A DNA stretch of 64,000 nucleotides from Candidatus Omnitrophota bacterium (GTDB taxonomy: Bacteria > Omnitrophota > Gorgyraeia > JABMRG01 > JAFGKX01): NCBI GenBank assembly GCA_043797125.1, contig JAZDPX010000012.1, forward strand, positions 24,376 to 88,375, in the 5' to 3' direction. Made by a program: the position numbers and the translations under genes. Below are positions 5,597 to 64,000 of this stretch, piece after piece. Each line of letters opens with the position of its first letter. The first letter of the stretch is position 1. The notes below the pieces were generated by a model. That model was not told where the DNA came from. It did not search any database and was given only the letters and a program-made list of their open reading frames with translations.

Positions 5597-5600
5597 TAAT

Positions 5601-6038: not shown

Positions 6039-6437
6039 ATGAATAAAAGAGGGTTTACGCTCATAGAGGCCATAGCATCCGTGCTTCTTATAGGGGTGGC
6101 TATTGTGCCCATAGCGAAGATTTTGACTCAAAGTTTTGTTATAAGTACCAAGGAAGAAAGATTTACCAAGGTCGTATTTTTGGCAGAAAGAAAAATTGAA
6201 GAGGTTAAGAACAAGGCCTTATATGATTTTAATACGGACAGGGATCAAAGCGCGACAGCATTTACCGATACAGGTTTTACAAATTATAAATATACAGTTG
6301 CTGATAATATTATTGAAGATGACGATTCGGCATTAAAGCAGATTCAGGTAATAGTCTGGCATGATGAGGATAACGATAATGCTGTTGATGCTAACGAAGA
6401 GTCAATTACGCTTGATACTAAAATTGCAGAAAGATAA
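6039..6437 (+). CDS. prepilin-type minor pilin/pseudopilin
   Basis: MNKRG followed by FTLIEAIASVLLIGVAIVP. Confidence 0.75.
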   Translation: MNKRGFTLIEAIASVLLIGVAIVPIAKILTQSFVISTKEERFTKVVFLAERKIEEVKNKALYDFNTDRDQSATAFTDTGFTNYKYTVADNIIEDDDSALKQIQVIVWHDEDNDNAVDANEESITLDTKIAER

Positions 6438-7551
6438 GGAAAAATTTGTAACGGGGTTTACACTTACAGAAGTGCTCTTTGTGGTGTTGTTGATTGCTTT
6501 ATTGATAGCGGTTGTGTATCCTTATCTTAGGGCTACGCACACCGGGTGGAAGACGCTTGACAGAAGGCAGGAAGTGATTCAGAATGCTCGCGTCGGAATG
6601 GATAAGATGAACAGATTGTTAAGAGAGGCAACCGGGTTTACCAGCGTAACAGGCGCTTCTGATAATAACGGCAGGATTGTTTTTTTGGATAAAGATTCAA
6701 ATACAGTTGAATTTAAAAAATATAACGACGGGACAAACGACATGTTGGGATATGTTACGGGCGCTAACACATATTCCCTGGCAGGGCCGATAGAGGCACT
6801 TACATTTACCTGCTATAAAGAAGACGGCGTGACTACGACTACCACAGCTTCTGATATTAAGTCTGTTGAAGTTAAAATGGTGGTTGCGGATAGCGAGTCA
6901 GAAGTGCCTTCGCAGACATTTATATCAAGAATCTTTTACCGGAAGGATACGGCAACCGCTATTGTAATAAACGAGATTTTATATTATCCGTGTAATGATA
7001 CAGGTTCTGATAAAGAGAGAGAATTTGAATTTATCGAAGTATATAATAACGGCGCCGAAAATATTGATCTTAACGGCTGGCAGATCCAGGATAGCGGCGG
7101 CACAGACACAGATATTATCGAGGCATATGGCGCAAGCTCAACAATATTGACCGCAGGCGAATACGCTGTTATCGGCGCAAAAGACACTAAGATATTTACC
7201 AAGCTGAATATAACATGCGACATTAAATTAAAAACCAATGATAACGAGTTTGGCGATAATAAGTTGGGAAATTCCAACGATACTGTTGTTTTAAAAAATT
7301 CAGGCGGCGTTCAGATAGACAGCGTTTCCTATTCATCAAGCTGGGGTGGCGGCTATAGCCAAACTGGCAACACAGGTACATCGTATTCATTGGAGAGAAT
7401 AGACCCATCCGGAACTTCCAATGATTCCGGCAACTGGGACCAGAATGAAAGCGCAAGCCCGAATGCTGTCGTTGTTTTGGGATCAGGCAGTAATAAAGTT
7501 ACAGTATCGTTTTATTGCACGCCGGGAGAACTAAACAGTGTATCTGACTGA
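6424..7551 (+). CDS. prepilin-type pseudopilin fused to a C-terminal lamin-tail domain (LTD)
   Basis: In-frame TTG at 6424 gives leader MQKDKEKFVTG followed by FTLTEVLFVVLLIALLIAV. The ATG at 6361 is out of frame with the upstream gene and gives a nonsense N-terminus. The C-terminal ~140 aa match LTD hallmarks INE...EFIEVYN...DLNGW...GEYAVI...VVLKNSGGVQIDSVSY. Confidence 0.7.
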   Translation: MQKDKEKFVTGFTLTEVLFVVLLIALLIAVVYPYLRATHTGWKTLDRRQEVIQNARVGMDKMNRLLREATGFTSVTGASDNNGRIVFLDKDSNTVEFKKYNDGTNDMLGYVTGANTYSLAGPIEALTFTCYKEDGVTTTTTASDIKSVEVKMVVADSESEVPSQTFISRIFYRKDTATAIVINEILYYPCNDTGSDKEREFEFIEVYNNGAENIDLNGWQIQDSGGTDTDIIEAYGASSTILTAGEYAVIGAKDTKIFTKLNITCDIKLKTNDNEFGDNKLGNSNDTVVLKNSGGVQIDSVSYSSSWGGGYSQTGNTGTSYSLERIDPSGTSNDSGNWDQNESASPNAVVVLGSGSNKVTVSFYCTPGELNSVSD

Positions 7552-7963
7552 TAAAAGAGGAGTAATGTTGCTGCTTGTAGTTTTTATTATTCTTGTTATG
7601 ACAGTTCTTGTAATCGGCTATCTGCAGGCTGCAACCACAGAGACAGAGATTATGCGAAACCACAAGATGTCTACCCAGGCGCTATATATCGCGGAAGCAG
7701 GAATAGAAGATGCAATATATACTATCAGGCAAACAGGAAACAGCCAGTGGGATGCTGGTTTCCAGAATAAAGAATTTCCAGCAGGTTCAGGCAACACCTA
7801 TACGGTTGTAGTTGATAATTCTAATTATCCGAGCGTTATTATAACGTCTGTTGCAACAGTTTCAAGCACATATCAAAGGGGAGTTGAGGCGGAGATAGCT
7901 GTTTCAGGCCCGCCTACATCCGCCCCCTATCCTGTTAGCATGAATTATTGGAAGGAAGCATAA
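7538..7963 (+). CDS. PilX/GspK-like minor pilin (PilX_N-type N-terminus)
   Basis: KRGVMLLLVVFIILVMTVLVIGYLQAATTETEIMRN resembles the PilX N-terminal domain. Lies in the pilin cluster. Confidence 0.6.
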   Translation: MYLTDKRGVMLLLVVFIILVMTVLVIGYLQAATTETEIMRNHKMSTQALYIAEAGIEDAIYTIRQTGNSQWDAGFQNKEFPAGSGNTYTVVVDNSNYPSVIITSVATVSSTYQRGVEAEIAVSGPPTSAPYPVSMNYWKEA

Positions 7964-7969
7964 ACATAA

Positions 7970-9457
7970 ATGAGTATTTTTAAAAAAGGCACCCAGGCAG
8001 TTGGTTTGGATATCAACCAGGAAACAATCACTGTAATTGAGATTGCTAAGTCCAAACAGGGGTTTGTTCTTAAAAATATTGCAGCATGCCCTACGCCTTC
8101 CGGTTCAATAGAAAAAGGCATAATTGTTAACCCTAAAGCGCTTGGTAAAACGATTAAAGAGCTGTTTATCAAAAATAATATAAAATCAAGACAGGCAACT
8201 GTTGCGGTTTGGGGCCCCGGAGCGCTTGTTCATCTAAGCAAAATTCCAGCTATACCTGATAAAGAAATAAAAGAGGCATTAAAATCAGAGGTTTCCCATT
8301 ATATAGTTTTTGCCGGAGGCGAGACTGTTACGGATACATATAAACTTGAAGAGATAATAGATAATGGAGTTAAAAAAACTCAGGTATTGCTTGGTGTGGC
8401 AAAAAAGGATGTTGTTAATTCGTATGTTGAGGCCGCAAAATATGCCGGCCTTGAGTTAATCGCCATAGACATAGGCTGTTTAGCTGTTATGAGGGCATTA
8501 TATTCCAACGCATTGAGGGCTCAAAGCAATGAAGCAGTTGTTTTGGCGACTGTTGAAACGGAAAACACGGTCCTTTCCGTGCTAAGAGGAGGGATTTTAT
8601 CATATTCTTATAATATTGACGCGGGAAGCAGAGATAGGGAATTTGCATCTAAGCTAACTTTTGAGCTTAAGTCTGTTATTAACTATTATCAATCTGAACA
8701 TACAGAGGTTGTCAAAAAAATAGTCATAGCAGGCGAGATACAGAAACTCGGGGCAATAGAAAAGGATTTAAGCGCGGAGTTTGCGGGAATAGGCGTGGAA
8801 AAAGGCCTTGTTGGCGCTGATATTCAATACGACAAAAGCGCTTCTCCATTTTCTGTCAGGGCTGTCGGCCTTGCCATGCTGGCAAAAGGAGTAGGCGAGT
8901 ATCCGGTCAAGATAAACCTTCTTCCGGCAGAAGAGATAAAAATTCAAGAAGCAAAAATCCAGGTGCTTAAATTCTTGATTGCTCTGTGCTTTTTAATATT
9001 TTTAATATTAATATCCTTTGCAGCTATAAAATTATCTATTAAAGCAACAGCGTCAAAGATACTTGTTATTCAACAACAGTTGGAGAAGCCAAGCCCGCAG
9101 CTACAAAGGCTTTTGGGGATTGAGCAGGGCGCAAGAGCATATACAGGCGAAATAGAAAAGCAAAACGGCATTATTGACACGGCGGGTAAAGCTAAGGCAT
9201 CCGATTTGTTAGACGAGATAAGGCGCCTGACGCCAAAAGATGCGCGGCTGATTAAATTAACAAAAAAGGAGAACACGGTAATCTTTAGCGGCGAGGCAGT
9301 TTCGCAGGAAGCGGTATTTAATTTTGTTCGCAGCCTGAAAGGGTCAGGTTATTTTGAAGAAGCAAAGCTTCAAACAGCGGAATCTAAAAGCGATCAGGAA
9401 AAGACTTATATTGATTTTGCCATAATCTGTCAATTAAGTTCCGGAGAGAACCAATGA
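7970..9457 (+). CDS. PilM-PilN fusion protein (actin-like ATPase domain plus PilN TM/periplasmic domain)
   Basis: N-terminal ~350 aa are PilM-like (VGLDINQETITVIEI..., actin-like fold). Then INLLPAEE, the PilN signature INLLP, followed by a TM helix and a coiled-coil segment. Confidence 0.7.
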   Translation: MSIFKKGTQAVGLDINQETITVIEIAKSKQGFVLKNIAACPTPSGSIEKGIIVNPKALGKTIKELFIKNNIKSRQATVAVWGPGALVHLSKIPAIPDKEIKEALKSEVSHYIVFAGGETVTDTYKLEEIIDNGVKKTQVLLGVAKKDVVNSYVEAAKYAGLELIAIDIGCLAVMRALYSNALRAQSNEAVVLATVETENTVLSVLRGGILSYSYNIDAGSRDREFASKLTFELKSVINYYQSEHTEVVKKIVIAGEIQKLGAIEKDLSAEFAGIGVEKGLVGADIQYDKSASPFSVRAVGLAMLAKGVGEYPVKINLLPAEEIKIQEAKIQVLKFLIALCFLIFLILISFAAIKLSIKATASKILVIQQQLEKPSPQLQRLLGIEQGARAYTGEIEKQNGIIDTAGKAKASDLLDEIRRLTPKDARLIKLTKKENTVIFSGEAVSQEAVFNFVRSLKGSGYFEEAKLQTAESKSDQEKTYIDFAIICQLSSGENQ

Positions 9458-10089
9458 CGTTTAATCCGCTTGAAGGCGTTTTAAAGTTCGTGTATAAATT
9501 AAAAATATACCAAAGGCTAATTCTTGCTTTGCTGACAATGTTTTTATGTTGCTATGCCGTGTATAATTCTCTTATTTCAGCGCAGCTTATTAATTTAAAT
9601 TCCATAAAAAAGCAGCTTATGGTGCAGGCAAACCTTATAGAGTCTAAGAGAGAGAAAACAAAACAGCTGCTGCAGCTCGAGGACGGTTATAATAAACTCC
9701 GCGAAGACATAAACAAAAAGAATATGAGATTTTTTAGCGACGAAGAAGCTATTGATTTTTTCAAAAATCTAAACAAATTAGTCGGTCAAGACTCCGGCAA
9801 CGAGCTCATTTTTATAAAGCCGCTGTCGGAAGATACTATCGGTGAATCATTGATAGACGGGGCCAGGTATATTTACAAAAGGTCAGATGTTCAGTTAATT
9901 ATAAGTGGAGGGTTTAGCTCCATATATGAACTTTTCAAGAAATTATCGGATTTTAATAAAGTTATTAGCATAAAGGATTTTGACATAGAACTCAAGCAGA
10001 GTGAAAACATGATGCTTAAATCTGATTTTGTCTTAAGTATATATATTTTAAGCCACAAGGAAGAAAAGACAATTGAAAACAACGCATAA
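9454..10089 (+). CDS. pilO: PilO-like inner-membrane pilus assembly protein
   Basis: N-terminal TM helix, coiled-coil region, position after pilMN. Call rests on architecture and position. Confidence 0.5.
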   Translation: MTFNPLEGVLKFVYKLKIYQRLILALLTMFLCCYAVYNSLISAQLINLNSIKKQLMVQANLIESKREKTKQLLQLEDGYNKLREDINKKNMRFFSDEEAIDFFKNLNKLVGQDSGNELIFIKPLSEDTIGESLIDGARYIYKRSDVQLIISGGFSSIYELFKKLSDFNKVISIKDFDIELKQSENMMLKSDFVLSIYILSHKEEKTIENNA

Positions 10090-10474
10090 AATAAATATTA
10101 GGTATTTAATCATTTTAATCGCCGTAGCAATGTTGGCTTGCGTTGTAAGCTTAGAAGGCGTATATTCGCAGGATACTGCAGAGAAACCCAAAAAGGAAGA
10201 TCTTGCACCCGATATATACGGCAGATACGACCCGTTTGCGCCAATAGGAATGGATTATAACGGTTCATCCGCTAATAAAATGCTGGGCCTTACTTTGGAA
10301 GGCGTGATAACCGGGTCTACAAAACCTCTTGCAATAATAAACAACACAATTGTAAAAGAAACCGACATAATAGAGGGTAAAAAAATTAAAAAGATTCAGA
10401 CAGATAGAATTACTATTGAAGATGAAAACGGCAAGGAACACGAACTTAAACTGTTTAAAGAAGAGGATAAATAG
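10073..10474 (+). CDS. pilP: PilP-like pilus assembly lipoprotein
   Basis: Signal or TM segment. YDPF motif (PilP-type RDPF hallmark) followed by a beta-rich C-terminus LTLEGVITG...AIINNTIV... Confidence 0.5.
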   Translation: MKTTHKINIRYLIILIAVAMLACVVSLEGVYSQDTAEKPKKEDLAPDIYGRYDPFAPIGMDYNGSSANKMLGLTLEGVITGSTKPLAIINNTIVKETDIIEGKKIKKIQTDRITIEDENGKEHELKLFKEEDK

Positions 10475-10485
10475 GGGGAGGGAGC

Positions 10486-10695
10486 ATGTTTATTTTTGGT
10501 TTAATAGGCATAGTAGCATTGGCTTTAGGAATACTGCATTTTACCAGCACGGATACAATATGTAAAATAGATGAAATCGGGAAAAAGGTTATCATTACCA
10601 TGGATAAGATGGTAAAAAAATACCCTAAAAGATTAGGCGTGCTTTACATTATTGCCGCTACTTTCCTGATTTATGTTGGCTTCTTTTTGAAATAA
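10486..10695 (+). CDS. small two-TM membrane protein, hypothetical
   Basis: 69-aa ORF with two hydrophobic helices. 3' end overlaps the convergent gene. No recognisable motif. Confidence 0.3.
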   Translation: MFIFGLIGIVALALGILHFTSTDTICKIDEIGKKVIITMDKMVKKYPKRLGVLYIIAATFLIYVGFFLK

Positions 10696-12785
10696 TTTAA
10701 AGCCTTGTATAGATTCAGCCTTGCCTGTACGTGATTCGGGTTAAGGCGCAGCGCCTTTCTCCAAAATTTAATCGCCTTATCTTGATTTCCGATAGCGTTG
10801 TATATTACCCCGATATTGTTATAAGCAAATGCCGACCCCGAATCAGAGCGTAAGATTGCCCTAAACGCTTTCAGAGAATCATTTATTTTTCCTTTTTCGT
10901 AAAATAAAAGCCCAAGCCTGCTAAAGGCCTCGGTATGATTGGGGTTTGCCTTGACAACTTTTAAGAACTCCTCAATTGCCTTATCGCTTTCGCGCTTTTT
11001 TTCGTATGCAAGCCCGAGGTTATAATGGATAAACGGGCTTTTTTGGTCCGCATTTTTTGCCTCTTCTAATACAGATATGGCCTCATCATACAGGCCGATT
11101 ATTCTTAGGAATTCCCCTTTCTTAAAAAGCGTAAACGGAAACAGCCCCTTTACTGCCTTTTGAGCAGGATATTGTTTAATTACTTCGTAGATATTAGGAT
11201 ATTTATTGATAATATCCCTGTTCGCAAAAGAATTTTTTACAAAGACGCAGGATATCTCGTCAAAAAAGACAAGCCTCCAGTCGCTATTGTTATAAATATA
11301 TTCCAGAAGCGCGTCAGAATCAATGTATATGCGGCTTAAAATTATATAATTTATGTCAAAACCTTTCGTCACCTTGTCAAATTCTTTAGGATGCGATGTT
11401 AAGTCCACGTAGCCTTTGTAGAATTTCGGGCCGTATACTTCGGTTCTGCCGTCGATAAACACCTTTCTTTCAGGGGTAAGCCGAAAGATAAGATAACCGC
11501 CTATTTCGTAGGCATTGAACATATTGCCTTTGATGTTATTTGCCAGGATAAAGCGAACAGCGTCCTTTGGATATTTTGCATCCAAATCCCCAAGCCCGAA
11601 ACTTCGCACTGTTTTTTCCCTGAAGCAATATCTTGGAGATGTGGCAATAAAAGTTAAAGAAAGCATGCCGGCGATAAGACATAGAAGCAGTAGTAATTCT
11701 AAAACCATAGGGGACAGTTTCCCGAACAATTTGGAAAGCGTCTCCCGAACAAATCGGAAAGCGTCTCCGGATTGAGCAGATTCAAAGTTAAGCATGGTAA
11801 TAGGAGCGGTGAGTATGGCAAAATCAATGATATTTCTATTGGCCTTAAACGAAAAGGCCAAAAAAATAGCGTAAATGATAAGGTGCGTAGGATTCAAGCG
11901 CTTGTAATTTAAAACAAAGCCGGCTAAAGATAAAAATATCAGAAGTTTATAATAAGGGTAAGGTTGTAATTTTAAGATATTGTAAATATTAAGAGGCGGC
12001 TGCAGCTCCGTGATGTATTTCATTATAACTTCCTGCCAGCCGCTGTTGTTTATGCCTGTTAATGTCAAAAACGGATACAAAGCCCCGGTTAAGCCGTTTG
12101 GATTTATCAGGCCTGCTAATATGGCTGCCGCTGCAACACGCAGCAGCGTATTAAGTTTTTCTCTTTTCATGCGCTGCAATGCCTCGCCGATTAAATAGGA
12201 GAGTATAAGTATTATCCCCATTAAAGAGCCGCCGTGCAGATTTGTCCAAACCATTTGCAAGACAGGCAGTAAAAAAATTAGTTTCGTATTTTTGTATTTA
12301 AAATTATGCAATATTGAAAAATATATAACAAGGAATAAGGAATTGAACATGAAGGGGCGCTCAAGAAATCTATGTTCTGAAGCCAAAACCGCCACGACCG
12401 TTAAAATCACAGAAACCAAATATAAATTCTTGCGAAAACAAACAGCAAAAACAATAAAAAACGCAGCGCCAAAAACAAGCGCCTTCAAAACCACGATGCC
12501 GCCCAAGCCAAAGCCCCTGAAAATTAAGAAAAGCAAGACATCAGCCAACCACTGATGGTTAACCCATCGATGGCCAGGCACTGTATATGAAAATATATCG
12601 ATTTTTGGGATAAAACCATTGGCTAATATATACTCCCCTGTTTTTAAGTGCCACCAGATGTCAAAATCCCTTATATTTTGAATTAACATGGCAGCTACAA
12701 ACGTAAAAAGCCCTAAAAATACAGCGTATTTCGCGGCCTTTAGCAAGACAGGCAGCCAAGGAAAGAAAAAATTTTGCTTTTTCAT
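10671..12785 (-). CDS. polytopic membrane protein (GT-C/PMT-like N-terminal domain) with C-terminal TPR repeats
   Basis: At least 10 predicted TM helices in the N-terminal 450 aa. The C-terminal 170 aa contain about four TPR units (NLGLAYEKK..., AFSRLGLLFYEKG..., AYNNIGVIYNAIG...). Confidence 0.7.
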   Translation of the reverse strand: MKKQNFFFPWLPVLLKAAKYAVFLGLFTFVAAMLIQNIRDFDIWWHLKTGEYILANGFIPKIDIFSYTVPGHRWVNHQWLADVLLFLIFRGFGLGGIVVLKALVFGAAFFIVFAVCFRKNLYLVSVILTVVAVLASEHRFLERPFMFNSLFLVIYFSILHNFKYKNTKLIFLLPVLQMVWTNLHGGSLMGIILILSYLIGEALQRMKREKLNTLLRVAAAAILAGLINPNGLTGALYPFLTLTGINNSGWQEVIMKYITELQPPLNIYNILKLQPYPYYKLLIFLSLAGFVLNYKRLNPTHLIIYAIFLAFSFKANRNIIDFAILTAPITMLNFESAQSGDAFRFVRETLSKLFGKLSPMVLELLLLLCLIAGMLSLTFIATSPRYCFREKTVRSFGLGDLDAKYPKDAVRFILANNIKGNMFNAYEIGGYLIFRLTPERKVFIDGRTEVYGPKFYKGYVDLTSHPKEFDKVTKGFDINYIILSRIYIDSDALLEYIYNNSDWRLVFFDEISCVFVKNSFANRDIINKYPNIYEVIKQYPAQKAVKGLFPFTLFKKGEFLRIIGLYDEAISVLEEAKNADQKSPFIHYNLGLAYEKKRESDKAIEEFLKVVKANPNHTEAFSRLGLLFYEKGKINDSLKAFRAILRSDSGSAFAYNNIGVIYNAIGNQDKAIKFWRKALRLNPNHVQARLNLYKALNYFKKKPT
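11690..11775. repeat. two tandem copies of a short dispersed repeat (TTTCCCGAACAA...GGAAAGCGTCTC) embedded in-frame in the TPR membrane protein gene
   Basis: gacagtttcccgaacaatttggaaagcgtctcccgaacaaatcggaaagcgtctcc. Its reverse complement matches 34967-35002 in the bio esterase-BioC gene at 31/33 nt. Confidence 0.5.
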
Positions 12786-12892: not shown

Positions 12893-12968
12893 GCCCGCAT
12901 AGCTCAATTGGTAGAGCAGCGCCCTCTTAAGGCGAAGGTTCCAGGTTCGATTCCCGGTGCGGGTACCA
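12893..12968 (+). tRNA. tRNA-Lys (anticodon CUU)
   Basis: Cloverleaf by eye: acceptor GCCCGCA/TGCGGGT, D-arm GCTC/GAGC, anticodon loop CTCTTAA, T-loop TTCGATT, 3' CCA encoded. Confidence 0.9.
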
Positions 12969-13108
12969 TGAACCATTCGACAAAACCTTTGGTTTTGTCT
13001 CAGGTTCATGGCACAGCCATGAAAGTTTTGTCGAATGATGAATGCCCTGTACCCGAGCCCCGATGCTTCGGGGCGAGTGGTTCAGGGCAACCATGCTTGC
13101 TTGTATTC

Positions 13109-13193
13109 GCGGATGTGGCGAAATTGGCAGACGCGTGCGGCTTAGGACCGCATGGAGCAATCCATGGGGGTTCAACTCCCTCCATCCGCACCA
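13109..13193 (+). tRNA. tRNA-Leu (anticodon UAG), long variable arm
   Basis: Acceptor GCGGATG/CATCCGC, anticodon loop CTTAGGA, variable arm TGGAGCAATCCATG, T-loop TTCAACT, CCA encoded. Closely resembles canonical tRNA-Leu. Confidence 0.9.
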
Positions 13194-13232
13194 GCGAATT
13201 TTGCTACGCAAAATTTGTGAAACTAAAAAACG

Positions 13233-13307
13233 CGGGTGTAGCTCAGTTGGTAGAGCATTACGTTGCCAACGTAAATGTCGTCGGTTCGAACCCGATCACC
13301 CGCTCCA
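13233..13307 (+). tRNA. tRNA-Gly (anticodon GCC)
   Basis: Acceptor GCGGGTG/CACCCGC, anticodon stem TTACG/CGTAA with loop TTGCCAA, T-loop TTCGAAC, CCA encoded. Confidence 0.9.
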
Positions 13308-55604: not shown

Positions 55605-56135
55605 ATGATGCCGGTTGGACCACTGATGAAAGAACACAGGCTTATCGAGCGCATGATACGGATAACGGGTGGTAAGCTTGATAAAATAAAGCAAACAAAA
55701 GATGCGGATACGCTATTTATTGACGCGGCAGTGGATTTCATAAGGACATACGCGGACAAATGCCATCACGGCAAAGAGGAAGACATATTATTCAGGGAGC
55801 TTGCTAAGAAGGAATTATCCGACGAGCATAAGAAAATTATGAATGAATTAATAGAAGAGCATAAGCTAGCTAGAAATAATACAAGACAGCTAATTACAGC
55901 AAAAGAGAATTACGCTAAAGGCGATAAAAACGCTTTAAAAGATATCATGTCAAATATGGAAATATTAGTTAAATTTTATCCAAAACACATCGAGAAAGAA
56001 GATAAACGTTTTTTTATTCCGTGCATGAGCTATTTTACAGAGCTTCAAAGAGATGCAATGCTTAGCGAAATGCTGGAATTTGACAGAAACATGATTCATA
56101 AAAAATACGCCGATATTGTCGAAGGATATGAATAA
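55605..56135 (+). CDS. hemerythrin HHE cation-binding domain protein
   Basis: H...HxxxE pattern (KCHHGKEEDILF, EEHK). Four-helix-bundle length. Confidence 0.65.
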   Translation: MMPVGPLMKEHRLIERMIRITGGKLDKIKQTKDADTLFIDAAVDFIRTYADKCHHGKEEDILFRELAKKELSDEHKKIMNELIEEHKLARNNTRQLITAKENYAKGDKNALKDIMSNMEILVKFYPKHIEKEDKRFFIPCMSYFTELQRDAMLSEMLEFDRNMIHKKYADIVEGYE

Positions 56136-56574
56136 TTCAAGAAGAGCCCCCATAGTGCTTTCCCAGAAAATAGCGATGTTAATTATAGTTGTGTTTTCTT
56201 TATCTGCTTCAGTCAGATTATTCAGTTACGCGGTTGATTTCAACGGTGCGGATATAAAGAATAACAACATAAGCCGATATGAAAGCCGCTTTAGCGAAAT
56301 CAGGAAAATGTTAGCTAGCGAAAAGGTTGTCGGGTATATTACGGAAAAGACTCCGGAAGAAATCACTGCTGATGCAAACGCTACGGCTGAGTATTTTTTG
56401 ACACAATACGCTATTTCGCCGACGGTTGTCGATAATAAAAAATTTGACGGTCTCGTCGTAGGAAATCTTCACTCCGGCTATTTATCTGGTAATGCCAGCA
56501 CTAAAAAACTTTCTTTAATAAAAAATTTCGGAAACGGTGTAATGCTATTAAAGAGTGTAGGAGAATCAGAATGA
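56116..56574 (+). CDS. membrane-anchored hypothetical protein
   Basis: N-terminal TM helix. No recognisable motif. Confidence 0.3.
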   Translation: MSKDMNNSRRAPIVLSQKIAMLIIVVFSLSASVRLFSYAVDFNGADIKNNNISRYESRFSEIRKMLASEKVVGYITEKTPEEITADANATAEYFLTQYAISPTVVDNKKFDGLVVGNLHSGYLSGNASTKKLSLIKNFGNGVMLLKSVGESE

Positions 56575-57992
56575 TAATAGCTTCCTTATTCGCTTTTCTT
56601 TTGCCGGCAATGATAGGCCTACTAATAATTTATTTATCTTGGCCGGATCAATACTCAATTTTTAAAAATCCCCTGATTAAATTTTCACTTGCGATAGGCT
56701 TAGGATTTGGAATATCGTCATTATGTTTTTTTATTTGGGTCATCATTCTTGGCCCTAAGAACGGATTTGTTCCTTCCATAATGTCAGAATTTTTATTATT
56801 AATCGTATTATCTATTATCGCCTTGCGGCACCTCAAGAAAAACGCCGGATCTCAAATGCAAGATTGCGGTATCCGCCCAAATCCCGTTAAGCACCAGCTC
56901 CTCTACAAGATTCTTTTAAGCGTTACTTGCGTTGTTTTCGCAATGACGGCGGTATCTTTTATATGCATGTCACTTAAAGAACCGCACGGAGGTTGGGACG
57001 CGTGGGCCATATGGAATATGCATGCGCGTTTCCTATTTAGAGGCGACCTTGATTGGCGCAATGTATTTTCTGCAGCAATAGACTGGACACATTCTGATTA
57101 CCCTTTTCTTATTCCAGGGCTAATAGCTCGCTGTTGGAGATTTATAGGCAAGGAGATGGTGTGGCCGCCTTGTGCAATAGCCATGCTTTTTACGCTAGGG
57201 ACAGCTGGCGTAATCATTTCTTCACTTTCTATAATAAAAGGTAAAATAGATGGCCTTTTGGGCGGTTTGATGTTAATGGGAACATCTTTTTTTATACAAC
57301 ACGGCGCCTCGCAGTATGTGGATGTGCCGCTGTCATTCTTTTTTTGTTCGGTTTTGGCGCTATTTAGTATCATAGATTTTTCATATCACGATAGGCAAAA
57401 ACTTTTACCTTTAGCGGGCATGATGGCGGCTTTTTCAGCATGGACCAAAAATGAAGGTATTGTATTTCTTTTTTCGCTTATCGCGGCACGATTTATAATA
57501 GTTATAAGATCCAGAGGTTTTAAGGCCTATATGAAAGAAACAGGGTTATTGATAATAGGCATAATGCCGGTCGCTCTTGTTTTGGCTTATTTTAAGTTGT
57601 ATTTAGCGCCGCGCAACGACCTTTCCAGAGGTAATTTTTTAGCAACCGTAACAGATTTTCCCAGATATCTTTTTATCATAAAGGCCTTCCTTGGCCAGTT
57701 TATACATTTTGGAGCTTTTTTCATAGGAGCAATACCTCTTTTATTTATATACCTGTTTATATCAGGAGTAAGCATAAAGAAAAAATATATTTCAGTTCCA
57801 GCGACCTCATTTATAGTTCTTTGTCTGATGACCTGTTTTTACTTCCTTGTGTATCTTATTACGCCACGCGACCTAAGCTGGCATCTGGGCACATCTCTTG
57901 ATCGTCTGTTCCTGCAATTATGGCCCAGCACAATATTGTTTATTTTTCTTATAGCCAAACCTATTGAAGGAGACCAGCTAACATTACAATGA
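56571..57992 (+). CDS. polytopic integral membrane protein, hypothetical (possible GT-C-like glycosyltransferase)
   Basis: At least 11 predicted TM helices. Start codon overlaps the upstream stop. No diagnostic motif recognised. Confidence 0.4.
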   Translation: MIIASLFAFLLPAMIGLLIIYLSWPDQYSIFKNPLIKFSLAIGLGFGISSLCFFIWVIILGPKNGFVPSIMSEFLLLIVLSIIALRHLKKNAGSQMQDCGIRPNPVKHQLLYKILLSVTCVVFAMTAVSFICMSLKEPHGGWDAWAIWNMHARFLFRGDLDWRNVFSAAIDWTHSDYPFLIPGLIARCWRFIGKEMVWPPCAIAMLFTLGTAGVIISSLSIIKGKIDGLLGGLMLMGTSFFIQHGASQYVDVPLSFFFCSVLALFSIIDFSYHDRQKLLPLAGMMAAFSAWTKNEGIVFLFSLIAARFIIVIRSRGFKAYMKETGLLIIGIMPVALVLAYFKLYLAPRNDLSRGNFLATVTDFPRYLFIIKAFLGQFIHFGAFFIGAIPLLFIYLFISGVSIKKKYISVPATSFIVLCLMTCFYFLVYLITPRDLSWHLGTSLDRLFLQLWPSTILFIFLIAKPIEGDQLTLQ

Positions 57993-58201
57993 TACAGATA
58001 TCCAGATGGCATATCTCCCAACTGCCTCTCAACGCCACCTTTTTCTTAAGAGATATTTTTAATGGATAAACATATACACATACGTACTTTCGGATGGCCG
58101 TTGTCCACCCTATAGACGCACGATGGCGAGCTTGGCGGAGGCGTTGGTAGGGGCGGATTGAGAGCAAGTATTATAGACAGGTTTATTAAAGGTTGTGATG
58201 T

Positions 58202-58780
58202 ATGAAAATTCGAGAAAGCGGGATGCCTGAGCGTGAAATGTGGGAGAAATTCTTTAGTCCTGCAAAAATTCTGTCCACGCTCGGCATAAATAGTCAAACA
58301 GGTGACGTTGCTGAGTTCGGGTGCGGCTACGGCACCTTTACGATTCCGGCCGCGAAAGTAATCAAAGGAGAAATATACGCGCTGGATCTTGAGCCTGATA
58401 TGATCCTATTTACTGATGAAGAAGCTAACAAGGGCGGTTTGACCAATGTGAAAACAGTCCTGCGTGATTTTATGGCAGAGGGATCCGGCCTTCCGGATGG
58501 AAGCGTGGATTATGCGATGCTCTTCAATATTCTTCATCTTGAAAAACCAATGATTCTTATTAATGAGGCAAAGCGGATTTTGAGGGAAGGCGGCAAGCTT
58601 GGGATCATTCATTGGAATTACGATCCGAAGACGCCGCGCGGGCCTTCGATGGATATTCGGCCAAAACCGGAAGATTGCACAAAATGGGCGGAAAGCGCCG
58701 GGTTCGGCGGAGCTGTCCAGTATGACTTAAAGCCATATCATTACGGCATCGTTTTAACGAAAGCGGAGGTTATAAGATGA
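58202..58780 (+). CDS. class I SAM-dependent methyltransferase
   Basis: Motif I VAEFGCGYGTF. Acidic residue after beta2 (ALDLEPDM). Methyltransf_11/25-like. Confidence 0.7.
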   Translation: MKIRESGMPEREMWEKFFSPAKILSTLGINSQTGDVAEFGCGYGTFTIPAAKVIKGEIYALDLEPDMILFTDEEANKGGLTNVKTVLRDFMAEGSGLPDGSVDYAMLFNILHLEKPMILINEAKRILREGGKLGIIHWNYDPKTPRGPSMDIRPKPEDCTKWAESAGFGGAVQYDLKPYHYGIVLTKAEVIR

Positions 58781-59097
58781 GGATCGGGGTTATTATTTCA
58801 AGCAATGATGCAGAAACGTCTTGGAACGCGTTTCGGTACGCCAACTTTTGTTTGGGGCAAAAAGACGAGGTGAAGGTGTTTCTAACCGGCAAGGGCGTTG
58901 AATACCAAAAGATAAGTACCGAGAAGTTCAATACGATCGAGCAGGCAGAGAAATTACTTCAGGCCGGAGGCAAGATACTGGCTTGTGGAACATGTATTAA
59001 GTCTCGGAATCAGGAAGGCACGGAAATGTGCCCGATCAACACCATGAAGGATATGTACGAGATCATTAAAGAGAGCGACAAGGTGGTCACCTTTTAG
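58777..59097 (+). CDS. DsrE/DsrF-like family protein
   Basis: About 106 aa with conserved Cys in ILACGTC. Translationally coupled (ATGA) to the methyltransferase. Confidence 0.55.
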   Translation: MRIGVIISSNDAETSWNAFRYANFCLGQKDEVKVFLTGKGVEYQKISTEKFNTIEQAEKLLQAGGKILACGTCIKSRNQEGTEMCPINTMKDMYEIIKESDKVVTF

Positions 59098-59498
59098 CAC
59101 AGCCAAGTTTAGAATCATTAGAGCCCTATGGCTGTGCCGGGTGGCATAGTCATAGGGTTTTCTGTTTACGGGTCCTTGGAAGCCGGTGTCGGGTGAGGGT
59201 CGGGCGAGGCGCGGGTTGTCAGTGATTATGGTCAAAAAAATCGATGACAATGTCAATTCAACGGGTGTCTTGGGCATCTATGGTCAGATTGGCTGGAATG
59301 AGCGTTCCCAGACGGTAAACAAGCGACTTTCGGGGTGTCCTGCAGGCGGTCGGGGTCGTCAAAAAGGGCGTTTTTGAGTGACATGGATGGACATTTGGTG
59401 CGTTGTATAAACGTTATGCGATTGTAACTGTAGGCGGTACTTTTGATGAACGAAAGTACAGCAAGATTTGGGTGAATTTTAATGCTCACTTTAGGCTA

Positions 59499-59565
59499 AT
59501 GTTCACTAAACAGTGAACATTGTTGCGCGAACATCGTGTCAGAAAAAGCATATAGTTTTTCTGAC
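59499..59565 (+). promoter_or_regulatory. candidate operator boxes: palindrome ATGTTCAC-N6-GTGAACAT, a third GAACAT half-site, and perfect IR GTCAGAAAAA-N8-TTTTTCTGAC
   Basis: Perfect 8-bp arms at 59499-59520. Extra half-site at 59530-59535. 10-bp arms at 59538-59565. All lie just upstream of the XRE gene promoter. Confidence 0.45.
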
Positions 59566-59597
59566 AAGGCCAATCCTGTTTTGCTGGCTGTTTTTGA

Positions 59598-59626
59598 TTG
59601 ACTCCCAATGCTTTTCGTGCTATAAG
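59598..59626 (+). promoter_or_regulatory. sigma70-type promoter for the XRE regulator operon
   Basis: TTGACT (59598-59603), 17-nt spacer, TATAAG (59621-59626). RBS AGGAGA and ATG at 59655. Confidence 0.45.
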
Positions 59627-59654
59627 ATGCAATATGCGCAATAGGAGAATAACT

Positions 59655-59891
59655 ATGATAAACACAGGAGCAGGGCATATGGATATCATAAAAAAATTAG
59701 AGCTGTACCGTCTTGAGAACAAGATCACACAGCAGGATTTAGCCAAGGAGCTGGGTGTTGCTTTTTCGACCGTGAGCCGATGGTTTAACGGCAAGACCGT
59801 TCCCAGTAAAATCCAGCAGTATCATGTCGAGAAGTATTTAACCAAGAAGAAAATAACATTTTCGGCTAAGAGCGTAAAAGAGGTCAAGTAA
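59655..59891 (+). CDS. XRE-family HTH transcriptional regulator (controller C-protein-like)
   Basis: HTH_3 motif ITQQDLAKELGVAFSTVSRWFNG. About 78 aa. The ORF-track start 59598 lies upstream of the predicted promoter. Confidence 0.7.
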   Translation: MINTGAGHMDIIKKLELYRLENKITQQDLAKELGVAFSTVSRWFNGKTVPSKIQQYHVEKYLTKKKITFSAKSVKEVK

Positions 59892-59892
59892 G

Positions 59893-61341
59893 ATGAAATA
59901 TAAAATCTTTGTCAGTGGTGCACAGAAGGAGTTGAAGAAAGAACGCCGGGCAGTCAAAGAGTTTATCCGTAAGGATGCGCTTTTATCAGAATATTTCGAT
60001 GTTTTTCTTTTTGAGGATTCTCCCGCCAAGAGTAAATCAGCCGAAGTAGCTTACATCGAAGAAGTCCGCAAAAGCGACATTTACATCGGCATTCTCGGAC
60101 AGCAATATGGCGGCTCCGGAAAAGAAAAGATGTCGCCGACAGAAGCAGAATTCCGCGAAGCCAAGGTGAAACACAAGGAAATATTGATCTATATTAAAGG
60201 TCAAAACACCGCAGATAAGCTCCGTGACGGTGGTATGCAGGAATTTATAACGGAAATTAAAAATCCGAAGGCAGGGTACAGTTATGGAAGATTTGATACT
60301 GCTACCGAATTAACCAATCTGGTTTACGAGAGCCTGATATCCTTTCTTAAAGAAAAAGGTGAGATTGGAAAGGCGGGATTTGATCAACGAATTTGCGAGG
60401 GGGCTAAGCTATCCGACATTGACGAGAATAAGGTTAAATGGTTTTTAAAGACAGCGCGGTCAAAACGTAATTTCCCGCTTGGGTTGGATGCTTCCGTGAC
60501 CGACATTTTTATTCATTTGAAACTACTCAAGGACGGTAAGCTGACTAATGCCGCCATTTTATTATTCGGCAAGAATCCGCGAAAGTTTTTTGATCAGGCA
60601 AAGATCAAGTGTGTGCAATTGCCCAGCACTGAGGTCGTGAAGCCGTTTTCGTCGTATCATATTTATGAGGAAGAAAACCTCTTTGAACAAGTCGATAAGG
60701 CAGTATCGTTTGTTTTGGATGCCATTAAATTTCCTGTCATTCAACAATCGCATACAGTGCAGGTAGCGCGGCCTCGTGAGATACCTGAGTTTGCTATCCA
60801 TGAAGCAATCGTTAATGCTGTAGCGCATCGTGATTACAATACAACGTCATCTGTTCAGGTGATGGTTTTTCTCGATCGCGTTGAGATATGGAATTCCGGA
60901 ACGCTTCCCGGGAATCTCAAAGTGGAGGATCTAAGAAAACCACATTCTTCACATCCGTCAAATCCGACGTTAGCGAGTGTTCTATTTTTTGGAGACTATA
61001 TACAACAGGTGGGATCCGGCACAACGGAAATGATTCGACAGTGTAAAGAACATGGACTTCCGGAGCCGGAGTTCATTTCAGTGCGAAATCTTGAGTTTAA
61101 GACGATACTGGCAAGGGATGTCTTTACGGAAACTAATCTTGCCCAAATGGGGCTTAATGACCGTCAGGTTAAGGCTATCAAGTATATCAAGGAGCATAGG
61201 CAAATTTCGCGTAAAGACTATGTTAGTTTGGTATCTATATCTCCTCGGCAAGCTCTAATTGATCTCACAGAACTGGTAGAGAAGAAAGTCTTAATATTGA
61301 TAGGCAAGGGAAGATCGTCTAAATATACATTGCGCAAATAA
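59893..61341 (+). CDS. DUF4062 - AlbA_2 (Schlafen-like divergent AAA) - HATPase_c_4 - wHTH protein, putative defense/regulatory ATPase
   Basis: N-terminus KIFVSGAQKELKKERRAVKEFI is DUF4062-like. Middle region has the AlbA_2 pattern. C-terminus GSGTTEMIRQCKEHGLPEPEF is the HATPase_c_4 signature, followed by a winged helix. Confidence 0.7.
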   Translation: MKYKIFVSGAQKELKKERRAVKEFIRKDALLSEYFDVFLFEDSPAKSKSAEVAYIEEVRKSDIYIGILGQQYGGSGKEKMSPTEAEFREAKVKHKEILIYIKGQNTADKLRDGGMQEFITEIKNPKAGYSYGRFDTATELTNLVYESLISFLKEKGEIGKAGFDQRICEGAKLSDIDENKVKWFLKTARSKRNFPLGLDASVTDIFIHLKLLKDGKLTNAAILLFGKNPRKFFDQAKIKCVQLPSTEVVKPFSSYHIYEEENLFEQVDKAVSFVLDAIKFPVIQQSHTVQVARPREIPEFAIHEAIVNAVAHRDYNTTSSVQVMVFLDRVEIWNSGTLPGNLKVEDLRKPHSSHPSNPTLASVLFFGDYIQQVGSGTTEMIRQCKEHGLPEPEFISVRNLEFKTILARDVFTETNLAQMGLNDRQVKAIKYIKEHRQISRKDYVSLVSISPRQALIDLTELVEKKVLILIGKGRSSKYTLRK

Positions 61342-61345
61342 TGTT

Positions 61346-61381
61346 CGATTAGTGCGCGATTTGCGCGATTAGTGCGCGATT
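61346..61381. repeat. direct repeats CGATTAGTGCGCGATT x2 (GCGCGATT x3) upstream of radC
   Basis: cgattagtgcgcgatt-tgcg-cgattagtgcgcgatt. Confidence 0.5.
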
Positions 61382-61412
61382 AAATAAGCGAAGAACAGAG
61401 AAGAGAAGAATA

Positions 61413-62114
61413 GTGAAGGAAAGAAAAGCGACAGGTATAAAGACTTGGCCGGAGGATGATAGGCCGCGTGAGAAGTTGCTCAAGAAGGGTGCAGGGGCTT
61501 TGAGTAATTCAGAGCTTCTGGCTATTCTTCTTCGCACCGGCACGCAAGGCACCAGCGCAATTGACCTTGCTCGCAAGGTTTTGAAGAAATTCGGCACGTT
61601 CCGGAACATGGCGCATACGGATTCGCGCGATTGGAAGGATCTCAAGGGTTTAGGCGGGGCTAAGATTGCCCACATTCAGGCCGCGCTTGAAATCGGGCGG
61701 CGCTATCGCGAGGACGATGTGTCCACCGGGAAGCAGAAGATCGCCTCTGCCAAGGATGTTGTAGATATCGTCATGCCTCAGCTCCGCGACCTTAAGACGG
61801 AGGTGTTTAAGGTCGTTTACCTTGATAGTAATAACCGTATTATCGACATCGTGGATACCGCGGTTGGAACCGTTGATCAGGCATTCCCGATTGTCCGTGA
61901 AATAATCCACGCCGCCTTGCAGAAATTCGCGAAATCAATCGTTTGTGCTCACAATCACCCATCTGGCGAGGTTAATCCAAGCCGGGGCGATATCACTTTT
62001 ACGAATGAGCTTTATAACGCTGGGAAACTTATGCAGGTCGATATTTTGGATCACCTCATAGTAGGAAATGACAAATTTTACAGTTTTGCCGATGAAAATA
62101 AACTTGTAAGTTGA
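61413..62114 (+). CDS. radC: RadC-like JAB/MPN domain protein
   Basis: Helix-hairpin-helix [18 protein letters not shown] motif [14 protein letters not shown]. Stop overlaps the hsdM start region. Confidence 0.85.
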
Positions 62115-62128
62115 GGGAAGGGAATACT

Positions 62129-63679
62129 ATGGCACAAAATCATATAGCAGAGCTTGAGAAGCGATTGTGGGCGGTGGCTGACGAGTTACGAGCCAATTCT
62201 GATTTAAAGGCATCCGAATATTCAGCGCCAGTATTAGGGCTAATCTTTTTAAGATACGCAGATTATCGTTTCACCAAGCAAGAAAAGATACTCTCCGAGA
62301 AATCTACCAGCCGCAGAAAAATTAGTAAAACAGATTACCAAGCCGCAGGCGTTATGTATTTGCCTGATGAAGCGCGCTTTGCTTTTCTGTTGAACTTGCC
62401 GGAAGGTGCGGATATCGGCAAAGCGATCAATGAAGCTATGAAAGCGGTTGAACGCGAAAACGAAGACCTCAAAGGCATTCTTCCTAAAACGTACAACAGA
62501 TTTGACAACAACCTTTTGGTTGAACTGATTAAATTAATGTCATCAATTAAGGAAGATATCGAAGGTGATGCTTTCGGGAAAATTTATGAGTACTTCTTGG
62601 GTGAGTTTGCCATGACCGAAGGACAGCAAGGCGGGGAGTTTTTTACGCCGACTTCTGTTGTCAAATTGATCGTTTCAATTATCCAGCCGTTTCACGGGAA
62701 AATATTTGATCCGGCATGCGGATCGGGCGGTATGTTTGTCCAGAGTGCTGAGTTCGTAGAGGAGCACAAAAAGAAAGCCGTTGATGAGATTAGTATTTAT
62801 GGGGAGGAAAAAACGCGGGAGACGGTCAATCTCTGCAAAATGAACTTAGCGGTTCACGGATTATCGGGTGATGTTCTGCAGGGGAATTCTTATTATGAAG
62901 ATTTGCACAATATGGCTGGTGCATTCGACTTTGTCATGGCCAATCCTCCATTCAACGTCAATCGCATTGATAAAGATCGGATCAAGAATGACCGCAAGCG
63001 ATTTCCGTTTGGAATGCCATCGGCAGATAATGGCAATTACCTTTGGATTCAACTTTTTTACAGTGCGCTGAATGAAAAGGGGCGGGCAGGGTTCGTTATG
63101 GCCACTTCAGCAAGCGATGCCCGTGGAAGCGAGCAAGAAATCCGAAAGAAGTTAATTGATGATAAGACGGTAGATGTAGTGATAGCAGTTGGGTCGAATT
63201 TCTTTTATACGGTCACTTTGCCGGTGACACTGTGGTTTCTCGATAGGGCTAAAAAGAAAAGCGATCGCAAAGACAAAGTGCTTTTTATCGATGCTCGTAA
63301 AATCTTTAATCAGATAGATAGAGCCCATCGGGAATTCTTACCCGAACAGGTAGAGCTTATCGCAAATATTGTCAGAATGTACCGCGGTGAAAATATCGAA
63401 ATAGAACATGGTAGTGAAAAATTCATGAAGGAAAGCTTCCCGAAGGGAAGGTATCAAGATATTACCGGTCTGTGCAAGGTAGCTACCTTGAAGGATATTG
63501 AAGAATTAGGTCTCAGTTTAAATCCCGGTCGATATGTTGGGATAGTTGAGGATGAACGAGACGGTTTTGATTTTAAGGAAAGATTAGAAGTGCTGAATGA
63601 GGAATTGCAGACACTAAATGTTGAGGCGAAAGAGCTTGAGGGGACAATTTCTGAGAACATAAGCAAGATATTGGGTTAA
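62129..63679 (+). CDS. hsdM: type I restriction-modification system DNA methyltransferase subunit
   Basis: HsdM N-terminal domain ([11 protein letters not shown]), SAM motif DPACGSGGM, catalytic NPPF (VMANPPFN). Start set at ATG 62129 (RBS GAGGGAAGGGAA). Confidence 0.9.
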
Positions 63680-63681
63680 AC

Positions 63682-64000
63682 ATGATGCAGTACAAAACTA
63701 TTGATGACATAGCATTTATCAATCCCGACTCGATCAAGCGGGGGTATCCTCATAATGATATCGAATATATCGATATTGCTTCTGTTGGTTCCGGGAATTT
63801 GATGAAAACCACATCAATCACTTTATCTGAGGCATCGAGCAGGGCTAAACGTTTGGTAAAAAATGGCGACACTATTTTGTCTACAGTGCGGCCGAATCGA
63901 CGGTCTTTTTTATATGTTAAAAAGCCAAAGGATAATATTGTCGTATCAACTGGCTTCGTGGTGTTGAGAGCTAAGAATGGGACGGACCCGAGGTATTTGT
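63682..64000 (+). CDS. hsdS: type I restriction-modification specificity subunit HsdS (3' partial)
   Basis: ATG follows directly after the hsdM stop. The frame is open to the window edge. Target-recognition-domain-like N-terminus; TVRPNRRSFLYV...STGFVVLRAK is typical of HsdS. Confidence 0.7.
   Translation, partial: MMQYKTIDDIAFINPDSIKRGYPHNDIEYIDIASVGSGNLMKTTSITLSEASSRAKRLVKNGDTILSTVRPNRRSFLYVKKPKDNIVVSTGFVVLRAKNGTDPRYL

Follow-up and report, generated by a model that had tools for sequence, protein, structure and literature searches.

A modular defence island in a Candidatus Omnitrophota genome, probably inserted at the 5′ end of a miaB-family gene by a large serine recombinase

Background

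Genomic islands that insert at the 5′ end of a tRNA-modification gene by means of tyrosine integrases have been described for dusA, and a Polaromonas element targets a MiaB-like (rimO) gene (Farrugia et al. 2015, PMC4482086). These dusA-specific islands are the closest precedent for the insertion mode of the locus described here, a defence island in the last 6 kb of a 64-kb stretch of a Candidatus Omnitrophota genome (contig JAZDPX010000012.1; the whole stretch, 64,000 nucleotides in length, is called the window throughout). As in the dusA islands, the element would supply a replacement 5′ end of its target gene, a remnant 5′ fragment is found at the other junction, and the cargo is variable. 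Unlike in those islands, the enzyme is a large serine recombinase (LSR) with its attachment site (attP) within its own open reading frame (ORF), such that the enzyme would lose its last ~20 residues on integration, and it is the recombinase gene that would encode, in a different frame, the substitute start of miaB.

The defence content of the island combines known kinds, namely a type I restriction-modification (R-M) system, a DUF4062 NADase, and the chassis of Schlatpase proteins. DUF4062 has been characterized as a TIR-like NADase with a catalytic Glu that causes abortive infection in the Swarozyc (KpSwz) and Evangelion (Eva01) systems, in two preprints (10.64898/2026.05.01.722283 and 10.64898/2026.06.25.731849), neither of which mentions Schlafen, AlbA, HATPase, or RadC. 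The island protein shares with KpSwz and Eva01 an N-terminal DUF4062/TIR-like domain with a catalytic Glu, a C-terminal auxiliary (AUX) region thought to sense infection, and a location on mobile elements and in defence islands, but differs from them in that the auxiliary region consists of a GHKL ATPase and a winged helix-turn-helix (wHTH) domain, and in that the gene is paired with an upstream XRE-family regulator, whereas KpSwz and Eva01 are single-gene systems. Schlatpase proteins (SLFN_AlbA_2, GHKL PF13749, and helix-turn-helix (HTH) domains, as in DIP2311/3LMM and SLFN-pAgo) are frequent in type I R-M loci, as is the case here; unlike them, the island protein has no Schlafen nuclease domain and carries DUF4062 instead. 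Type I R-M loci show allelic cassette exchange, for example in the immigration control region of E. coli, and in the loci compared here, hsdM-hsdS(-hsdR) operons of different families likewise share a position between conserved flanks, the difference being that the conserved upstream anchor is a full-length radC with a stop codon that overlaps or closely precedes the first R-M gene. RadC has been viewed in published work as a nucleic-acid-processing enzyme or an anti-restriction-associated gene, and no description of radC as the leader gene of type I R-M operons was found in the literature.

Here, we report that the terminal 6 kb of the window belong to a modular defence island that was acquired horizontally as a mobile element and of which they form the left part. 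We consider it likely that an integrative element, or a tandem array of such elements, starts at 58097 and extends beyond 64000, that an LSR mobilises elements of this family, and that their target is the 5′ end of a gene for a miaB-family tRNA methylthiotransferase. The locus provides a testable attB/attP pair for an LSR family of uncultivated phyla, in an unusual layout where attP lies inside the integrase gene and the replacement start of the target gene lies in a second reading frame. Furthermore, the putative natural effector swap on one chassis, a TIR-like NADase for a Schlafen nuclease, links two families experimentally described only in 2026 preprints and predicts that GHKL-driven oligomerisation can control either effector, and the coupling of radC to R-M operons offers a clue to what this long-enigmatic gene does.

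Results and discussion

The start of miaB is fused to the tail of a recombinase gene

Proteins identical to the DUF4062 protein, the methyltransferase, and HsdM (100% match) of the island have NCBI annotations in a Candidatus Omnitrophota metagenome-assembled genome. Relatives of the DUF4062 protein were found in 68 species-representative genomes, Omnitrophota in most cases, and in many metagenome contigs; the related loci used for comparison are labelled with L-numbers (L001 and so on). At the left end of the island, a mini-ORF spanning 58062-58115 encodes MDKHIHIRTFGWPLSTL followed by a stop codon, and its first 11 residues, MDKHIHIRTFG, fit the N-terminus of miaB-family methylthiotransferases, following the pattern x-(Y/F)-(I/L)-x-T-(F/Y)-G|CQMN of the intact miaB-family genes in L171, L156, and L160 (the N-termini compared are MTNKNDTQKKVFLATYGCQMN in L171 and MINKSEKKVFLKNFGCQMN in L156). 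The frame at 58090-58161 encodes GRCPPYRRTMASLAEALVGAD followed by a stop codon and matches the C-terminus of the 560-aa L001 recombinase in tblastn (95.7% identity over 23 aa, E = 2e-8), and, in the L001 recombinase frame, a stop codon stands ahead of 58090. The recombinase tail recurs in L003, L041, L171, and L172, and a diverged version of it is present in L156. Nucleotide similarity to five independent loci (L001, L003, L041, L171, and L172) starts at 58080, and all the upstream flanks differ. The 85-nt element at 58080-58164 was also considered as a non-coding att site or a small RNA, and turned out to be the C-terminal coding tail of the recombinase overlapping the miaB-like arm.

When the configurations were collected from every occurrence of the core ..T(T/A)(C/T)GGnTG|, all four expected arrangements were recovered: intact miaB (B|B') at L171:5695, L156:12426, and L160:9853; recombinase joined to miaB (P|B') in L158 and L159; the miaB 5′ end joined to the recombinase tail (B|P') at position 58089 of the window and in L003, L171, L172, and L041; and recombinase joined to its own tail (P|P') in L001, L156, L157, and L160. 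Because all four configurations are seen around the same core in relatives, 58096/58097 is, judging from sequence comparison, an attL-type junction that places the island inside the 5′ end of miaB. L158 and L159 contain the same recombinase up to ACCTACGGCTG and then continue into two different miaB alleles, and the B arm of L003 starts with MTNKNDTQKKVFL, the same start as in the intact miaB of L171. Of the recombinase gene, the visible part of the element retains no more than the last 22 codons, without the body. The joining of these codons to a miaB start is what an attP located in the 3′ end of the recombinase gene would produce; likewise, no part of the window encodes a miaB body, in keeping with a position of that body past the right end of the island.

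Within the 3′ ends of two recombinases that are only 47% identical to each other, an ATG and ~20 codons in the miaB frame are present, ending in ..YI(K/R)T(Y/F)G. Integration would thus be expected to give MiaB a new start, including the context of its first conserved cysteine, and to remove the C-terminal ~20 residues of the recombinase. The recombinases of L156-L161 are the same gene with different C-termini (545-568 aa), which vary with the downstream sequence, and this is direct evidence of a crossover site inside the ORF. In L171, a second junction-like scar, ..CGTTCGGCTG|GCCGATGGGTGC.., is located at position 4061 inside the island of this relative, suggesting that elements accumulate in tandem at the miaB site.

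The original prediction, made from the window sequence before any database search, had stated that neither an integrase nor a tRNA marks the left boundary. The part concerning tRNAs stands, given that a tRNA and Rfam scan found nothing near the island boundary; the part concerning the integrase does not, because the attL scar with its recombinase tail had been overlooked.

The island differs from the rest of the window in oligonucleotide and codon usage

Composition was measured for 57993-64000 against the rest of the 64-kb window. The GC content is 44.4% compared with 42.1% elsewhere, among the top ~2% of 6-kb windows, and 500-nt windows at 48-52% GC are confined to 58.0-59.5 kb and the interior of radC. 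The jump estimated originally, to 47-55% from ~40%, was therefore too large, and the proposed drift of codon choice toward CAG, GGC, and CGC was not found, the shares of CAG and GGC falling from 66% outside to 58% in the island and from 49% to 29%, respectively, and that of CGC being the same in both. The compositional break placed at ~58.0 kb is nevertheless evident from other statistics. In tetranucleotide usage, the segment is separated from the rest by an L1 distance of 0.279, ~13 standard deviations (sd) above the background of 6-kb windows (0.128 +/- 0.011, maximum 0.155), and all 2-kb windows from ~58.0 kb to the end of the window have z = 3.1-5.6, compared with a background maximum of 2.8. 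Arg codons are used in an AGR:CGN ratio of 21:67 in the island and 480:267 outside (Fisher p = 5e-13), that is, an AGR share of 24% compared with 64%, with CGN preferred over AGR in each of the seven island genes, and the share of ATA among Ile codons drops from 51% outside to 23% in the island. The distinct oligonucleotide and codon usage indicates a foreign origin of the segment. Thus, a 2% GC shift masked a 13-sd oligonucleotide shift, and GC judged by eye was the wrong criterion for genome scanning here. Mildly atypical tetranucleotide usage (z 2.5-2.7, far under the island values) was also observed in two background stretches, at positions 5500-8250 and at 54.75-57.5 kb.

The horizontal acquisition of a defence island running past the end of the window, as originally proposed, is supported by this composition and by the occurrence of the same modules in unrelated contexts in relatives, among which the left flank is different in each case. 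The proposed change in gene content, from housekeeping to defence and regulation, also holds: upstream of the island, the window encodes housekeeping and transport proteins (FeoB, pstSCAB-phoU, CstA, PiT, and a hemerythrin), and all the island genes listed at the time (methyltransferase, DsrE, HTH, DUF4062-ATPase, RadC, HsdM, and the start of HsdS) were matched in Pfam, PADLOC, and NCBIfam searches (Table 1).

Table 1. Features of the left junction and the island (coordinates are those of the window; SAM, S-adenosylmethionine; HhH, helix-hairpin-helix)
Feature	Coordinates	Strand	Evidence or description
Native miaB 5′ fragment (B arm)	58062..58096	+	ATG plus 11 codons, MDKHIHIRTFG
Recombinase tail relic (P' arm)	58097..58161	+	Large serine recombinase gene, last 22 codons and stop
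Class I SAM-dependent small-molecule methyltransferase	58202..58780	+	Pfam Methyltransf_25/11/31; PDB 3dh0, E 3e-14
DsrE/DsrF-like small protein	58777..59097	+	Pfam DsrE, E 7e-10
Terminator-like hairpin, then T-rich tract	59124..59157	+	15-nt arms, 87% complementary
Conserved non-coding leader block	59169..59394	.	~225 nt, island framework
Perfect palindrome 1	59498-59521	.	AATGTTCACT-aaac-AGTGAACATT
Perfect palindrome 2	59537-59566	.	TGTCAGAAAAA-gcatatag-TTTTTCTGACA
XRE-family HTH regulator, 78 aa	59655..59891	+	Pfam HTH_3, E 5e-11
DUF4062 + linker + GHKL ATPase + C-terminal wHTH	59893..61341	+	Pfam DUF4062, HATPase_c_4
Repeat array TGCGCGATTA x3, module junction	61346..61382	.	Similarity breakpoints
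Full-length RadC/YicR (HhH N-domain + JAB)	61413..62114	+	NCBIfam NF000642, 236 bits vs cutoff 180; PDB 2qlc, E 1e-22
HsdM, type I R-M methyltransferase subunit, 516 aa	62129..63679	+	Pfam HsdM_N, N6_Mtase (287 and 80 bits); PADLOC MTase_I 728 bits
HsdS N-terminal part, cut by window end	63676..64000	+	First 107 residues, PADLOC Specificity_I, E 7e-17

A DUF4062 domain on a GHKL-wHTH chassis

The DUF4062 domain (PF13271, 68 bits) covers residues 4-90 of the protein, within a TIR-like region of residues 1 to ~160, and the GHKL ATPase domain (HATPase_c_4, PF13749, 68.5 bits) covers residues 319-403. A profile of 42 homologues matches the DUF4062 protein KpSwz (10wc) with E = 8e-7, over positions 2-178 only. 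In this alignment, E86 corresponds to the catalytic-Glu position mutated in the deposited KpSwz E97A structure, and both E84 and E86 are invariant in the 42 homologues. The best Foldseek hit of the AlphaFold model is DIP2311 (3lmm, E = 2e-10), with weak matches of the N-domain to TIR and nucleoside 2-deoxyribosyltransferase structures; the C-terminal region matches 3lmm and 8cil, and its helical domain is modelled with a predicted local distance difference test score (pLDDT) of 86-91. Residues 163-480 are 44% identical (E = 2e-85) to residues 132-442 of a canonical SLFN_AlbA_2-GHKL protein, L047. In the canonical SLFN_AlbA_2-GHKL-wHTH proteins of the same locus set, the Schlafen domain occupies residues 5-115, the alignment begins only at residue 163 of the window protein, and residues 151-320 give no match to PF04326 (SLFN_AlbA_2) even at E <= 5. 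By these alignments, the Schlatpase chassis carries DUF4062 where the Schlafen nuclease would otherwise be, and because DUF4062 occupies that position, the protein is predicted to hydrolyse NAD+ and not to cleave tRNA. The designation "DUF4062-Schlafen-like ATPase" in the original prediction was thus correct for DUF4062 and the ATPase and incorrect for the Schlafen domain. The protein is predicted to be an abortive-infection effector.

The stop codon of the HTH gene is positioned 1 nt ahead of the start of the DUF4062 gene. The regulator is 81-96% identical upstream of DUF4062-family genes that themselves are down at 34-43% identity, and it accompanies DUF4062-type genes in relatives even where there is no R-M system. 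Although it shares with R-M controller (C) proteins the small size and the XRE-type HTH, it differs from them in being coupled to the DUF4062 gene, with the R-M operon located ~1.5 kb downstream behind radC, and a PDB search yielded a single hit, a protein deposited as DBP48 (E = 8e-4), and no C protein. Hence "C-protein-like", as it had been called, is not an apt label, and the protein is predicted to be a generic XRE regulator of the DUF4062 gene, not demonstrably a C protein. The two perfect palindromes upstream of the HTH gene are kept in L001, L003, L005, L021, L049, L150, and L171 and are candidate operators. The fusion of DUF4062 with GHKL in one effector, its pairing with the HTH regulator, and the coupling of radC to the R-M operon are all predictions from comparative analysis.

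RadC leads the type I R-M operon

In RadC, the UPF0758_N (99.5 bits) and RadC (132 bits) domains are both present, and the HNHPSG...S..D motif is intact in the alignment with 2qlc. In at least 9 distinct loci (L001, L003, L005, L150-153, L162, and L166), whatever the order of the R-M genes, radC either overlaps the first of them or ends a few nucleotides ahead of it, and this recurrent position marks radC as a conserved leading gene of the type I R-M operons of these lineages. A role of radC as a native housekeeping anchor was ruled out by its codon usage, which is of the island type (2 AGR : 12 CGN Arg codons), and by a metagenome-assembled genome containing three diverged radC-DUF4062 loci (L001, L019, and L039).

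The HsdM family is represented by sequences 70-97% identical in Peregrinibacteria, Bacteroidales, Goldbacteria, Firestonebacteria, Methanoperedens, and Brocadia, and its occurrence in such distant lineages points to broad horizontal spread. An hsdR gene was expected downstream of the window, and this expectation is supported by analogy with L162, which is collinear with the window and 93% identical at the nucleotide level over 61712-64000, and where RadC-hsdM is followed by hsdS (434 aa) and hsdR (1054 aa); hsdR is predicted to lie past 64000 in this genome as well. In L162-165, all 93% identical to 61712-64000, hsdR is followed by a LmuA-like nuclease and a 1206-aa protein, such that a Lamassu-like system may also follow in the source genome. 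In L162, the region after hsdR (6454-11756) encodes a LmuA/Cap4-nuclease-like protein (266 aa), the 1206-aa protein, which has no family match, and a 280-aa protein.

Modules are exchanged at fixed framework junctions

The non-coding gap noted originally extends over 59098-59654 (557 nt, 46.1% GC overall, 52.5% over the first 300 nt) and contains the conserved leader, which is 72-86% identical in L001, L003, L049, L150-155, L166-168, and L171 (at least 15 loci); a core of ~80 nt (~59314-59394) is additionally present in L002, L034, and L036. The leader precedes HTH-DUF4062 in some loci and AbiEi/AbiEii, which stands in for HTH-DUF4062, in others (L166-168 and L171). At the other end of the abortive-infection module, similarity to L149 (94% nt), L004, L009, L010, and L012 ends at 61381/61382, in the TGCGCGATTA array, which is also found in L042 and L049, and the RadC block begins at 61379-61397 in L001, L003, L034, L036, L049, and L166. 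L149 is 94% identical up to 61382 and then directly continues into a different hsdM without radC. In twelve contigs with an identical DUF4062 protein (P0025), the arrangement HTH-DUF4062-PDC-S10 phosphoesterase-170 aa-RadC is constant (~97% nt) and is followed by three unrelated type I R-M operons (R-S-M, M-M-S, and R-M-S), with breakpoints 10-16 nt before the radC stop codon. These breakpoints indicate that the abortive-infection module and the type I R-M cassette are exchanged in relatives at 59394, 61382, and the 3′ end of RadC. In L150 (9521-10704) and equivalently in L151-155 and L005, a calcineurin-like phosphoesterase (PADLOC PDC-S10, E = 1e-67) and a 170-aa protein are inserted between the DUF4062 gene and radC; neither is encoded in the window.

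The leader has no Rfam match and no coding signal. A structured RNA is not supported either, with an RNAalifold covariation term of +0.39 and a single-sequence fold z of -2.7 that is driven by local palindromes. It contains repeated GGTCAAAAA and (T/G)GACAT motifs and a TCAAAAA-N5-TTTTTGA palindrome; none of ATGKACAT, GGTCAAAAA, and TGCGCGATTA is significantly enriched genome-wide, the motifs being local only.

The methyltransferase-DsrE pair upstream of the leader is probably metabolic cargo involved in small-molecule metabolism. The start of the DsrE-like gene overlaps the methyltransferase stop by 4 nt; the methyltransferase gene uses island-type Arg codons, and the DsrE-like gene has a GC content of 0.61 at third codon positions. 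The DsrE-like protein has a weak match to the YedF selenium-metabolism family and is 97% identical in L171 and 75% in L005, and the methyltransferase is 96% identical in L171. The pair is present in L171 and L172 (96-97% aa) and missing from L001 and L003, where the positions corresponding to 58164 and 59124 are only ~26-40 nt apart; the hairpin that follows is kept in L001, L003, L049, and L150. A defence function of the pair was considered and set aside, the sole match in defence libraries being a generic methyltransferase-fold hit (PADLOC mad2).

Proposed organization and mechanism of the element

In the arrangement that we favour, the body of the recombinase gene would lie at the far right end of the element, fused to the rest of miaB, as inferred from relatives. 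The right junction is predicted to lie past 64000 and to run from the recombinase ORF into T(A/T)(C/T)GGnTG|CCAGATGAAT and then the miaB body, whereas the restored attB would join 58096 straight to CCAGATGAA. In its other frame, the 3′ end of the recombinase gene would encode the substitute ATG and ~20 codons that restore a complete MiaB. Three cargo units would follow the left junction. The first is the methyltransferase-DsrE pair, probably metabolic. In the second, the XRE-HTH protein would control the DUF4062-GHKL-wHTH effector gene, and, by analogy with described systems, the GHKL/wHTH part would sense infection and drive ATP-dependent oligomerisation, upon which the TIR-like DUF4062 domains would assemble into an active NADase through Glu86 and deplete NAD+. 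The third, the radC-hsdM-hsdS(-hsdR) operon, would restrict unmodified DNA. Recombination at the fixed framework junctions would swap modules between elements.

A broader scenario, which we put forward tentatively and with clearly less confidence, is that a widespread LSR family in Omnitrophota, Elusimicrobia, and neighbouring groundwater phyla has attP in its ORF, with the clipped C-terminal ~20 residues as a possible directionality or activity switch and with a new, out-of-frame MiaB N-terminus; that tandem accretion builds defence islands with abortive-infection (DUF4062-GHKL or AbiE) and R-M cassettes exchanged at the 225-nt leader, the TGCGCGATTA array, and the radC 3′ end; and that RadC functions together with the R-M operon instead of being carried along as a passenger.

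Weighing the explanations

Several observations weigh against an integrative element at miaB carrying an NADase effector and a radC-led R-M operon. A recombinase joined to its tail is found beside an apparently intact miaB in L156 and L160, which can be accounted for only by assuming that elements decayed or accreted in tandem. An empty site was not found in any close relative: homologues of the left-flank gene are ~42% identical at best (42-46% aa), and a metagenome scan with the left-flank membrane protein retrieved relatives only 33-46% identical, too distant for an empty-site comparison. The right end of the island, with its predicted recombinase-miaB junction, is outside the window; radC is missing beside some close hsdM relatives (L149 and L169); and the AlphaFold model of the DUF4062 protein is of moderate quality (pLDDT 68.6). 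The absence of an intact recombinase from the visible part of the island, together with the exchange of cassettes at fixed framework junctions and the recurrence of framework neighbours in several genomes (a methyltransferase, a transpeptidase-like gene, and miaB-SPOR-miaA), would also fit a chromosomal defence hot-spot, in which a native framework (leader and radC) stays in place, modules are swapped in it by homologous recombination, and the recombinase tail is an old, irrelevant scar. However, all the island genes, radC included, have non-host codons, the left flank is different in every relative, with divergence exactly at the att core, and the same site is seen both in the integrated form (L158 and L159) and as a scar. 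A hot-spot accounts for the maintenance of the island, not for its arrival, and is largely compatible with the decay of an integrated element; we regard it as unlikely as the explanation of the locus.

Two further explanations appear less probable still. Given that the source is a metagenome-assembled genome, that the compositional break is sharp, and that the island is 90-94% identical to sequences in other samples, where shared sequence can cause mis-joins, the last 6 kb might come from another organism, joined at ~58.1 kb as an assembly chimera. The junction, however, has exactly the structure of a biological attL, in that its miaB fragment begins with an ATG and breaks off at the core nucleotide where five independent assemblies break as well, and what lies left of the core occurs in this genome only and is not a shared repeat, which makes a chimera very improbable. 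A remnant of a prophage or phage satellite with defence genes would agree with the common use of LSRs as phage integrases and with the RhuM, Fic, and AbiE genes that are found nearby in relatives, but structural, packaging, and replication genes are missing from the window and from ~100 related loci, and neither a homologue of the DUF4062 protein nor a copy of the leader core occurs among 2.9 million viral contigs; we give a phage origin similarly little credence. Integration of an LSR-mobilised element at miaB thus is the explanation that we retain.

Other features of the window

A cluster of three tRNA genes (Lys-CTT, Leu-TAG, and Gly-GCC) is located at 12893-13307 and has no connection to the island. 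Just left of the island, at 56116-57992, a gene pair encodes a 152-aa protein and a 473-aa polytopic membrane protein, both without a match in Pfam and NCBIfam. The pair is kept in 55 of 80 metagenome loci at 24-45% identity, and some contigs contain two or three copies of it.

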